Made by a program: the position numbers and the translations under genes | NCBI GenBank assembly: GCA_902785275.1 | Contig: CACZYB010000003.1 | Location: forward strand, 64,001-128,000 | Source: an uncultured Pseudomonadota bacterium | Lineage (GTDB): Bacteria > Pseudomonadota > Alphaproteobacteria > Rs-D84 > CACZYB01 | Length of the DNA: 64,000 nucleotides | Reading direction: 5' to 3' | Notes under the pieces: generated by a model | What the model was told of the DNA's origin: nothing | The model's database searches: none | The model's input: only the letters and a program-made list of their open reading frames with translations | Shown here: positions 12,874 to 14,349 of the stretch, piece after piece | How positions within the stretch are numbered: the stretch's first letter is position 1 | How the letters are laid out: the number at the start of each line of letters is the position of its first letter

Positions 12874-14349
12874 TTACTTAATTATAGGCAAAAGTAAAAC
12901 TGTTACTATTATTATAAGTGTTGTAATCTGATTTGTAAGAGGCAAAACTGTATTACGAAGAAGTGGAGTAATAAGAAATGCCTTACCGTCTTGGGTTTCG
13001 AAAACATCAATTCCATTAATAACCAATATAGAAATGAATGCAGTCATAATAATAAGACCTAAAACCAAAGCTCCTAAAAGTTCATAGTTTATGAATGGGA
13101 GTAAATAGTAAAAACATACTGCAAACATAACTATATAAATAAGTGTACGAACCGCAATATATGCATGCTTTGCACTTAGCTGTATATACTTTGCAAGGTT
13201 TATAATTTTAAGGACATTAAACATTATCAAAACAATACTTGTAAACAAACCAATAATGACATTGTTTGATGAAATATTGATATGAATTTGTGTCTTGTAT
13301 ATAAACTCTAGTGTTTCAAAAAAAATATAAAACAATGCAACATTGTTAAGAGTTTTTGCAATGTATTTATATGACTCAGACTGTTTATCAAAAATATTTA
13401 CGTTAGATGTTAGGACAGTTGAACTTATCAAACCAAGTGATGCAACTGTAACCCCAAAGAATCCAGCGGAATTAAGACATGTGAATATCAACACAACCAT
13501 AATTGCAAGGCCAATCAAACTTGAGAAAAAAATGTTTGAAGTTGGGCTTAAAAAACTTAAGGTTGTAAGAGTACCTTTTTTACCTGAAATCTTTCTTCTA
13601 TTTAAATATGTTGAGATTTTTTCTGCAATATACTTTGATAAAATACCAACAGAAATAACCATAAAAAGATTATAACTTAGTGGGTAAAGTACTGTAACAA
13701 AAGCCATAGTTACAAGAGGGAGAATTACCTTAAAAATCTCGTTCACATTAGATTTTGTTTCTTGATCCATTTTGATAAAGAAATATTGGCACAAAAGTGA
13801 AAAGCAAGAAACACTTATAAACAAACTGCTTAAGAAAAATGGTAAGTTTATAAGAGAGAATCTGGATACATCATATCCAAAAAATTTTGAAATATCGACT
13901 ATTGGAATCTGGGATGCTATGATTGCGGAACTTAATGTTATAGTAATAATCATAACATAATTATCGATAATACGTAGGAATAAATTTCTCATAGGATTTA
14001 ATTTTGATTTTGCCTTTATCAAAATGCATGCCATTTTAAAAAGAATATTTACCGAAATTATGCCTAAAAGAATCCACAAAGAATTAAGCACCATATCCAT
14101 TTTGGTGAAGAAAAAATACTTTATTATACCGTATGAAAACAATGTAACAGACGATAGGAAAAAGTTTAATGGTTCGGATATTTTGTATTCCACATCTTCG
14201 GTTATTTCCTTAAAAAACTTAGGGTACTTTATTTTCTTATATACCAACATTAAAAAAATAATAAGAAAAACAAAGAACAAGCTTGCCGAAGAAATTCCCA
14301 TAAAAAGATTTATGAAATCACTCATAAAAATGTCCAAAAAAGAATTCAT
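12874..14349 (-). CDS. Polytopic membrane protein; degenerate homolog of membrane-bound H+/Na+-translocating pyrophosphatase (HppA) lacking catalytic motifs
   Basis: Many hydrophobic helices. Segments AGFFGVTVASLGLISS, INISSNNVIIGLFTS, ELLGALVLGLIIMTAFISILVING and LRNTVLPLTNQITTLIIIVTVLLLPII parallel HppA helices in the same order. No [25 protein letters not shown], WDNAK or GDTVGDP. GAGG RBS upstream. Confidence 0.7.
   Translation of the reverse strand: MNSFLDIFMSDFINLFMGISSASLFFVFLIIFLMLVYKKIKYPKFFKEITEDVEYKISEPLNFFLSSVTLFSYGIIKYFFFTKMDMVLNSLWILLGIISVNILFKMACILIKAKSKLNPMRNLFLRIIDNYVMIITITLSSAIIASQIPIVDISKFFGYDVSRFSLINLPFFLSSLFISVSCFSLLCQYFFIKMDQETKSNVNEIFKVILPLVTMAFVTVLYPLSYNLFMVISVGILSKYIAEKISTYLNRRKISGKKGTLTTLSFLSPTSNIFFSSLIGLAIMVVLIFTCLNSAGFFGVTVASLGLISSTVLTSNVNIFDKQSESYKYIAKTLNNVALFYIFFETLEFIYKTQIHINISSNNVIIGLFTSIVLIMFNVLKIINLAKYIQLSAKHAYIAVRTLIYIVMFAVCFYYLLPFINYELLGALVLGLIIMTAFISILVINGIDVFETQDGKAFLITPLLRNTVLPLTNQITTLIIIVTVLLLPIIK

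Follow-up and report, generated by a model that had tools for sequence, protein, structure and literature searches.

Research on membrane pyrophosphatases (M-PPases) treats them as the simplest of primary ion pumps and, in protists, as targets for drugs. Their fold comprises 15–17 transmembrane (TM) helices, with helices 5, 6, 11, 12, 15 and 16 forming an inner ring and helices 1–4, 7–10, 13 and 14 an outer ring. In the passages of PMC10897367 drawn upon here, the coupling of pyrophosphate (PPi) hydrolysis to the ion gate is described as still debated; the same passages name D6.43 and D16.39 as the residues by which active enzymes hold the nucleophilic water, assign gate roles to positions 6.50, 16.46 and 16.50, with the gate lysine K16.50 plugging the cation site until PPi binds, and place the dimer interface at helices 10, 13 and 15. 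Here we describe sPPase (short M-PPase-like protein), a predicted 491-residue membrane protein encoded in a 64,000-nt stretch of DNA (the window; GenBank assembly GCA_902785275.1, contig CACZYB010000003.1, positions 64,001 to 128,000) from an uncultured alphaproteobacterium of the lineage Rs-D84. We consider it highly probable that sPPase is a non-catalytic M-PPase derivative retained by selection. For the explanation taken as a whole, a derivative unable to hydrolyze PPi that may conduct a cation without it, we regard the balance as about even, with conduction by itself somewhat less likely than not.

Relationship to the membrane pyrophosphatase fold

Searches with the single sequence of sPPase returned little. 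Pfam gave no family at E ≤ 1, and NCBIfam gave one partial match, to the Na+-PPase model NF001961 (24.9 bits, E 5.5e-6, residues 136–319 against profile positions 232–418). A PDB profile search recovered 6afv_A as its sole sequence match (E 7.5, residues 401–498 against 225–316), too weak alone and later confirmed by hhalign and Foldseek. Weak matches to the Pfam H_PPase family (PF03030) were found in 6 of 14 aligned family members (best E 1.7e-6), and three sPPase orthologs scored 32–35 bits on this model, over profile positions 231–393 only.

Profile-profile comparison revealed a much stronger relationship. A profile of 14 short forms aligned by hhalign with four full-length M-PPases of the same order at 99.6% probability (E 1.3e-23), and the match was collinear across 430 columns. 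Repeated on a larger set (21 short, 5 full-length), the comparison gave 99.5% (local) and 99.9% (global) probability, while the control comparison of the short-form profile with an unrelated DnaJ gave 0.1%. The short-form profile also matched full-length M-PPase open reading frames (ORFs) of order-mates, with E values from 2.4e-21 to 1.2e-11. In these alignments AGFFGVTVASLGLISS pairs with GGLYGIALAAVGMLST in TM11, INISSNNVIIGLF with IDVTNPEVIIGLF at the start of TM13, ELLGALVLGLIIMTAFISILVING with AALGGLLAGSLVTGVVLALFMANAGG in TM15, and the segment beginning LRNTVLPLTNQITT with that beginning FKDTTGPAMNILVK in TM16. All four HppA-like segments that the initial annotation of this DNA had matched land on the corresponding M-PPase segments.

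Predicted structures gave the same picture. An AF2 model built from 27 sequences reached a pLDDT of 84.1 and a pTM of 0.87; an earlier model built from 14 sequences was of middling quality (pLDDT 69.1) and produced the same Foldseek pattern. Against the PDB, all 36 Foldseek matches at E ≤ 1e-3 were M-PPases (Thermotoga, Vigna and Pyrobaculum), and the next match, at rank 37, had an E value of 0.15. The ESM Atlas was uninformative, with no model of sPPase and only a 0.75 feature match to an unnamed cluster. Judged by profile, predicted fold and phylogenetic tree, sPPase is a true M-PPase homolog.

Residue-by-residue comparison was based on the global hhalign alignment, with numbering as in the Vigna enzyme, transferred via the canonical M-PPase of an order-mate (L015) aligned to the Vigna chain. 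Residues 1–42 of sPPase pair with TM1 and residues 51–490 span TM4 to TM16, whereas TM2–TM3 (about 75 residues) are without counterpart. Further deletions remove about 45 residues in total from the TM5-6 region, about 34 from TM11-12, about 30 from the TM13-14 loop and about 21 from TM15-16, and the protein is about 240 residues shorter than full-length M-PPases. Counterparts of TM1 and TM4–16, approximately 14 TM helices compared with the 15–17 of M-PPases, can be aligned, and the membrane-embedded parts of all six inner-ring helices appear to be kept. The AF2 model contains 14 long helices if helix 267–307 is split at the CLNSAG turn; DSSP draws this stretch as one helix, whereas the alignment requires a TM10/TM11 hairpin there. 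The loops predicted to be cytoplasmic contain 12 Lys and Arg residues and the outer ones 4, a positive-inside count that fits a predicted N-out/C-out topology as in M-PPases.

The initial annotation had proposed that all catalytic loops, in three cytoplasmic regions, were excised and replaced by short linkers. Those regions are in fact lost or substituted, but at least five deletions are involved, and TM2–TM3 and the 13-14 loop have gone as well. The replacing linkers are more than passive filler: few parts of the short-form family are as well conserved as the TM11-12 linker FDKQSESYKYIAKT, in which S324 and N336 are nearly invariant and residue 325 is Glu or Asp in 21 of 21 members. Conservation is highest in four blocks: the TM6-7 loop on the periplasmic side (SQIPIVDISKFFG..R..LINLPF), the beginning of TM13 (INIFSxNVIIGLF), TM16 and this new cytoplasmic linker (FDKQSESYKYIAKTLNN...FYIFFETLEF). 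Conserved polar residues peculiar to sPPase also occur within TM helices (N272, N336, S440 and N445).

Hydrolytic center and ion gate

sPPase has either a deletion or a non-acidic residue at the positions of D253, D257, E268, D283, D287 (6.43), N534, D691, K694, K695, D723 and D727. Position 6.43 is never Asp in the short forms, and D731 (16.39) is Asn in sPPase, with Asn in 15, Asp in 4 and Gly in 2 of 21 family members. At the D507 position the side chain is still acidic (Glu or Asp in 21 of 21). The positions other than 6.43 and 16.39 are ones that we take to be catalytic, and they were checked only by their invariance in full-length alignments. As placed by the alignment, the hydrolytic center of sPPase is lost, as had been suggested, with nearly all hydrolytic Asp and Lys positions deleted or replaced. 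The label of pseudoenzyme is a fair one for an enzyme homolog whose catalytic residues are lost and which is under purifying selection.

Part of the ion gate may have been retained. Asp129, invariant in the family, is aligned to the gate aspartate 6.50 without a gap down to the TM6-7 loop, and the spacing D129–A145–G158 equals that of D278–A294–G307 in the canonical L015 protein. Within TM16, the spacing P470–N473–T477 equals P709–N712–K716 of L015, which places Asn473 at 16.46 and Thr477 at the gate lysine 16.50. Position 6.54 is Met, Leu, Ser or Thr in the short forms. On the ungapped TM6 alignment, the M-PPase gate set (D6.50, E6.53/6.57, S6.54, D/N16.46 and K16.50) is not complete in sPPase. 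We infer that the invariant putative gate Asp and the change of Lys16.50 to Thr would be compatible with a channel.

Selection, distribution and gene neighborhood

Strong purifying selection acts on sPPase in a small clade of gut Alphaproteobacteria with genomes of about 1 Mb. The 22 loci collected contain 13 distinct full-length ORFs, at 23–85% identity, none of them with a stop. The Nei–Gojobori (NG86) dN/dS was 0.076 for the least saturated ortholog pair (dS 0.61) and 0.090–0.101 for the next three pairs, which are already saturating (dS 1.0–1.3); no pair exceeded 0.45 among the 40 of 78 pairs listed. The selection that had been suggested in place of pseudogene decay is borne out by these ratios and by the intact orthologs. 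The three copies from genus g4 (L012, L016 and L017) lie in DNA of 53–59% GC compared with 31–32% in genus g1, and their length and motifs are kept. Similarly small genomes within one family can differ by about 25 GC points at this locus (g4 vs. g1).

The relatives of sPPase form 17 clusters at 90% identity, mostly of 489–493 aa and 38–100% identical, and 19 representative clusters were recovered at E ≤ 1e-3 among 1.84 billion proteins. These proteins are annotated as hypothetical or sporadically mislabeled H_PPase. The related loci are labeled as metagenome-assembled genomes of uncultured Alphaproteobacteria, a few as 'bacterium' and one as Bacteroidales, some of them from animal or human gut. 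Among 41 related genomes, including that of the window (G000), the short form was found in 11 of 14 g1 and 3 of 3 g4 genomes, while long ORFs (600–763 aa) matched instead in four genomes from other families of the order. PF03030 was matched at E ≤ 1e-5 in 10 of 151 genomes of the order and in none of the 122 genomes of its dominant family, f4. At the level of the class, a canonical M-PPase was present in 95 of 121 sampled genomes, a tally that takes in one genome flagged as unpublished (G182), which contributed only here.

The full-length M-PPases of the order range from canonical to degenerate. The G026 protein is canonical (815 bits on PF03030) and carries Glu at 6.53. The forms of the sister family f2 from G024 (L013:1163-3418 (-), 751 aa) and G031 (L014:931-3099 (-), 722 aa) score only 342–372 bits; they have TM5-6 loop insertions, Asn in place of D6.43, DNAHS in place of DNAGG and other losses, and they keep WDNAKK, GDxVGDxFKD and K16.50. 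Only five clusters of this degenerate full-length type were found (P0035-P0039). The ordinary relatives closest to the f2 forms (about 30% identity) go by the name of K+-stimulated Na+ pumps in their sources. These f2 forms may be catalytically impaired intermediates. Another full-length M-PPase, P0033 (690 aa, 557 bits on PF03030), is degenerate elsewhere, with independent substitutions at catalytic positions (D253 to Ala, D287 to Glu, D6.50 to Asn, and SKNAGS in place of the DNAGG segment).

A maximum-likelihood tree was calculated from 34 rows over 443 shared columns (13 short forms, 5 order-level or degenerate full-length forms, 9 of 30 fetched class-level loci and 7 lower-scoring class loci; L054, with a longest ORF other than the M-PPase, was left out). 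On a stem of 2.45 changes per column, the short clade adjoins the f2 degenerate forms, then P0033 and then canonical G026 (splits 99/97 and 97/91). By this placement sPPase is a descendant of the K+-dependent Na+-PPase-like branch of its own order, and the series suggests stepwise decay within the lineage, from canonical through degenerate full-length to the minimal 491-residue form. No synteny was found between sPPase and the full-length hppA genes of order-mates; the f2 genes sit beside peptidase S41 and HolC, or beside M24. Since the neighbors differ, orthology by position is not demonstrable.

Table 1. Positions in the window of the sPPase gene, its predicted elements and its neighbors.
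Feature	Position	Strand	Basis or remark
trmB (tRNA m7G methyltransferase family), last gene of apparent operon	11402..12085	(-)	Pfam Methyltransf_4, E 5.3e-38
HD-domain phosphohydrolase gene, 256 aa, 16 nt after sPPase stop	12087..12857	(-)	Pfam HD, E 3e-10
sPPase coding sequence, 491 aa, ATG start, no internal stops	12874..14349	(-)	ORF call
Asn473–Thr477 codons, TM16	12919..12933	(-)	N473 = 16.46 (N 15, S 5, A 1 of 21); Thr477 at gate Lys16.50 (T 21/21)
Conserved cytoplasmic TM11-12 linker FDKQSESYKYIAKTLNN, residues 319–339	13333..13395	(-)	Replaces the ~34-residue-longer DxxGPxxDNAGG...GNTTAA catalytic segment
Residues 136–319 (TM6 outer half to TM11), stretch closest to M-PPases	13393..13944	(-)	NF001961; Pfam H_PPase 231–393 in orthologs; 6afv_A 401–498
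Asp129 codon, invariant 21/21	13963..13965	(-)	Ungapped alignment to ion-gate Asp 6.50
Shine-Dalgarno-like AAGAGG, 8 nt 5' of sPPase ATG	14358..14363	(-)	Read from sequence
Promoter-like TTGCAA-16-TATCAT with upstream TG, 5' of sPPase	14382..14409	(-)	Consensus match only
NMO/FabK-like gene, 466 aa, divergent from sPPase	14491..15891	(+)	Pfam NMO, E 2.9e-11

The gene layout is as originally described: the reading frame is intact and preceded by a ribosome-binding site, it leads the HD and trmB genes, and it diverges from the gene that had been called FabX-like (Table 1). By this layout sPPase and the HD gene are apparently in the same operon. Promoter-like sites in the region (22) were not above the number in shuffled sequences (19.8 ± 4.3), making the upstream match weak evidence, and no terminator-like site was found in 11200–14600. 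In every g1 locus, and in L017 and L012 of g4, the sPPase, HD and trmB genes lie side by side, and the conserved neighborhood consists of HD, trmB, OmpA-like and recJ genes. The NMO-family gene is kept as the divergent neighbor in all g1 loci and in G014; its product has a weak match to FabK (TIGR03151, E 3.6e-7) far under the cut-off and is 466 aa long compared with 307 for the profile. Elsewhere in the window, 17568–18938 (-) encodes a protein of 456 aa that may be a surface protein; its N-terminus resembles a signal peptide, and it has a Cys-rich stretch and long low-complexity regions rich in Ala, Thr, Ser and Gly.

sPPase and the HD gene are both present in 13 genomes and both absent from G006, G007, G008 and G015. 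G014 has the FabK-like, HD and trmB genes without sPPase between them, and in G016 sPPase is followed by trmB, with no HD found. The His/Asp metal-ligand motif of the HD protein is invariant in 14 orthologs. The gene is co-distributed with sPPase in family f1, and its 256-aa product has no close solved or named relative (PDB best Pnkp1, E 0.0076, not significant). A complex prediction for sPPase with the HD protein gave no verdict (score 0.00 against a mark of 0.32) and is evidence neither for nor against an interaction.

A PF03030 search of G000 (1.05 Mb, 95.7% complete) recovered no M-PPase, and 13 of 14 short-form genomes are without a canonical one, G004 being the only exception. The G004 protein is canonical (L029:1477-3588 (-), G004:C26; 703 aa, 896 bits on PF03030). 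It lies on a contig of 39% GC, compared with 32%, whose flanking genes are without close homologs in G000, in an assembly that is 73% complete and 2% contaminated; this copy is probably bin contamination. No family I soluble PPase (PF00719) was found in G000. A DHH-DHHA2 family II PPase is present (C5:31349-31717), and PPi disposal would therefore be independent of sPPase. G000 also encodes an ATP synthase c subunit (C3:136462-136653), and Rnf/Nqr (PF02508) was not found there.

Possible functions and comparison with known systems

What might such a protein do? One possibility, which we hold tentatively, is that sPPase is a PPi-independent conduit for cations. The putative gate Asp (D129 = 6.50, mid-membrane) and the Asn at 16.46 would have survived, the plug of K16.50 would be replaced by the invariant Thr477, and the loops of the periplasmic exit are the best conserved parts. 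Because these elements are conserved and the plugging lysine is an invariant Thr, a cation (Na+ or H+) could still be bound and, in the absence of PPi, passed along the former gate and exit channel. The surviving module would then consist of Asp 6.50, Asn 16.46, Thr 16.50 and the exit channel, a pump turned channel or carrier that is perhaps gated by the conserved new cytoplasmic face. A natural conversion from pump to channel, in which a Na+-PPase without its hydrolytic cap and gate lysine would have become a minimal 14-helix PPi-independent cation channel or uniporter, is possible though doubtful.

Several observations weigh against this interpretation, or against parts of it. PF03030 gives sPPase itself no match (curated cut-off 29.7 bits). 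The place of the short clade beside fast-evolving sequences could be due to long-branch attraction. The TM5-6 alignment is ambiguous between two hhalign runs: the first placed D129 with D279 of the Vigna enzyme and K105 with R5.50, at the cost of a 15-residue gap, and the global run placed D129 with D6.50 and K105 with K5.58. We infer that the ungapped alignment is to be preferred. The placement of residues relative to the pore comes from alignment and not from superposition. The semi-conserved gate Glu 6.53/6.57 is absent, with V132 and T136 variable, so the canonical cation site is incomplete. Two near-complete congeners, G006 (93%) and G007 (96%), are without sPPase and have DnaJ directly before trmB, which argues that its function is dispensable or accessory. 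Finally, among the sequencing runs listed for the locus none is on record as RNA; two labeled 'GENOMIC RNA-Seq' are ambiguous, and one full DNA run is a possible source.

The loss of the gate Glu would also fit a membrane scaffold or regulator that transports nothing, in which the M-PPase core serves as a stable multi-helix platform, possibly dimeric, and a soluble partner or ligand would dock on the conserved new cytoplasmic face. Among the novel elements, the one conserved most strongly (FDKQSESYKYIAKT) is on the cytoplasmic side, as are K381, R401 and D448. A soluble HD phosphohydrolase is encoded next to sPPase and shares its distribution, each gene being found alone in one genome. We nevertheless consider such a scaffold rather unlikely, as it gives little reason for an invariant buried Asp in the middle of TM6 or for the invariant Thr/Asn pair in TM16, the periplasmic exit loops are strongly conserved, and HD occurs without sPPase in G014 and sPPase without HD in G016. 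The large remodeling, the very long stem of the clade and the conserved polar TM residues of its own could instead point to a transporter on the M-PPase fold that has been neofunctionalized for a solute other than Na+ or H+. This is unlikely, since no substrate-related gene occurs in the conserved neighborhood, and, by the passages of PMC10897367 as well as established knowledge, no M-PPase relative is known to transport ions or solutes other than H+ and Na+.

That sPPase is still part of a phosphoanhydride-driven pump, with hydrolysis performed in trans by the HD protein or at a new minimal cytoplasmic site, appears quite improbable. The close spacing of the two genes, their order in two genera, their joint absence from four genomes (with DnaJ before trmB in G006 and G007), the invariant HD metal-binding residues and the acidic residue at the D507 position would agree with it, but nearly all metal and PPi ligands are gone, and each gene occurs without the other (G014, G016). 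The initial annotation had also suggested a regulatory partner of a true HppA. A regulatory or dominant-negative heterodimer would be consistent with retention of the interface helices 10, 13 and 15 and with the two forms in G004; it is very improbable, because the PF03030 search of G000 found no true M-PPase to pair with, most other short-form genomes are also without a canonical one, and the G004 copy is itself suspect. An ordinary decaying pseudogene, or chance hydrophobic similarity, could be suspected from the lack of a Pfam match and from the low-GC sequence rich in Ile, Leu and Phe. With dN/dS at 0.076–0.10, 13 intact orthologs across a 25-point GC shift, the hhalign result against its control and Foldseek matches that are exclusively M-PPases, this is hardly credible.

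If the cation-conduit reading is correct in its pump-to-channel form, sPPase would represent a new family of bacterial cation channels and, for M-PPase research, a naturally isolated module of gate plus exit channel. A selected relative with the membrane core and putative gate Asp, and without the hydrolytic center and gate lysine, would amount to an evolutionary experiment on coupling. It suggests that the membrane half of the M-PPase fold is stable and useful alone, and it may offer a small construct for studying ion binding and conduction without catalysis. sPPase would also be a rare pseudoenzyme derived from an integral-membrane pump, with a decay series visible in one bacterial order; its significance is limited by the narrow clade. 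In the full-text literature searched, with subscription papers and supplements outside its scope, no truncated or inactive M-PPase is described, and the available passages of a 2024 review of microbial PPases contain no occurrence of 'inactive', 'truncated' or 'non-catalytic'. The initial statement that no family like this had been described agrees with this search.

Compared with known systems, the best structural match of sPPase is the K+-dependent Na+-PPase of Thermotoga maritima (TmPPase, 4AV3; chain 4av3_A, E 1.4e-7, TMq 0.65). The two share the helix order TM1 plus TM4–16, the N-out/C-out topology (predicted for sPPase from the positive-inside count), the gate Asp 6.50 and Asn 16.46 as aligned, and the nearest full-length relatives of sPPase carry Glu at 6.53 and Ala at 12.46, as in the TmPPase subfamily. 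Unlike TmPPase, sPPase is about 240 residues shorter and without TM2-3 and the cytoplasmic hydrolytic cap; its residues at D6.43 and D16.39 are not Asp, K16.50 is Thr, Glu 6.53 is lost and it falls under Pfam thresholds. The Vigna radiata H+-PPase (4A01, 6AFS-6AFZ) also matches in fold (E 1.6e-5, TMq 0.61) and differs from sPPase in the same respects and, in addition, in its gate Glu at 6.57.

The nearest neighbors in the tree are the degenerate f2 M-PPases (L013 and L014, together with P0035-P0039), which share with sPPase a lineage-specific TM6-7 loop motif (ASxIxVVDISRYI / ASQIPIVDISKFFG) and, like it, have started to lose catalytic residues, for example D6.43 to Asn. Unlike sPPase, they are full length, with all 16 TM helices, the WDNAKK and GDxVGDxFKD motifs and K16.50, and they occupy another gene neighborhood. 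Pseudophosphatases such as STYX and MK-STYX are a further parallel, being enzyme homologs that have lost catalytic residues and are retained by selection. Unlike these, sPPase would derive from an integral-membrane primary ion pump.

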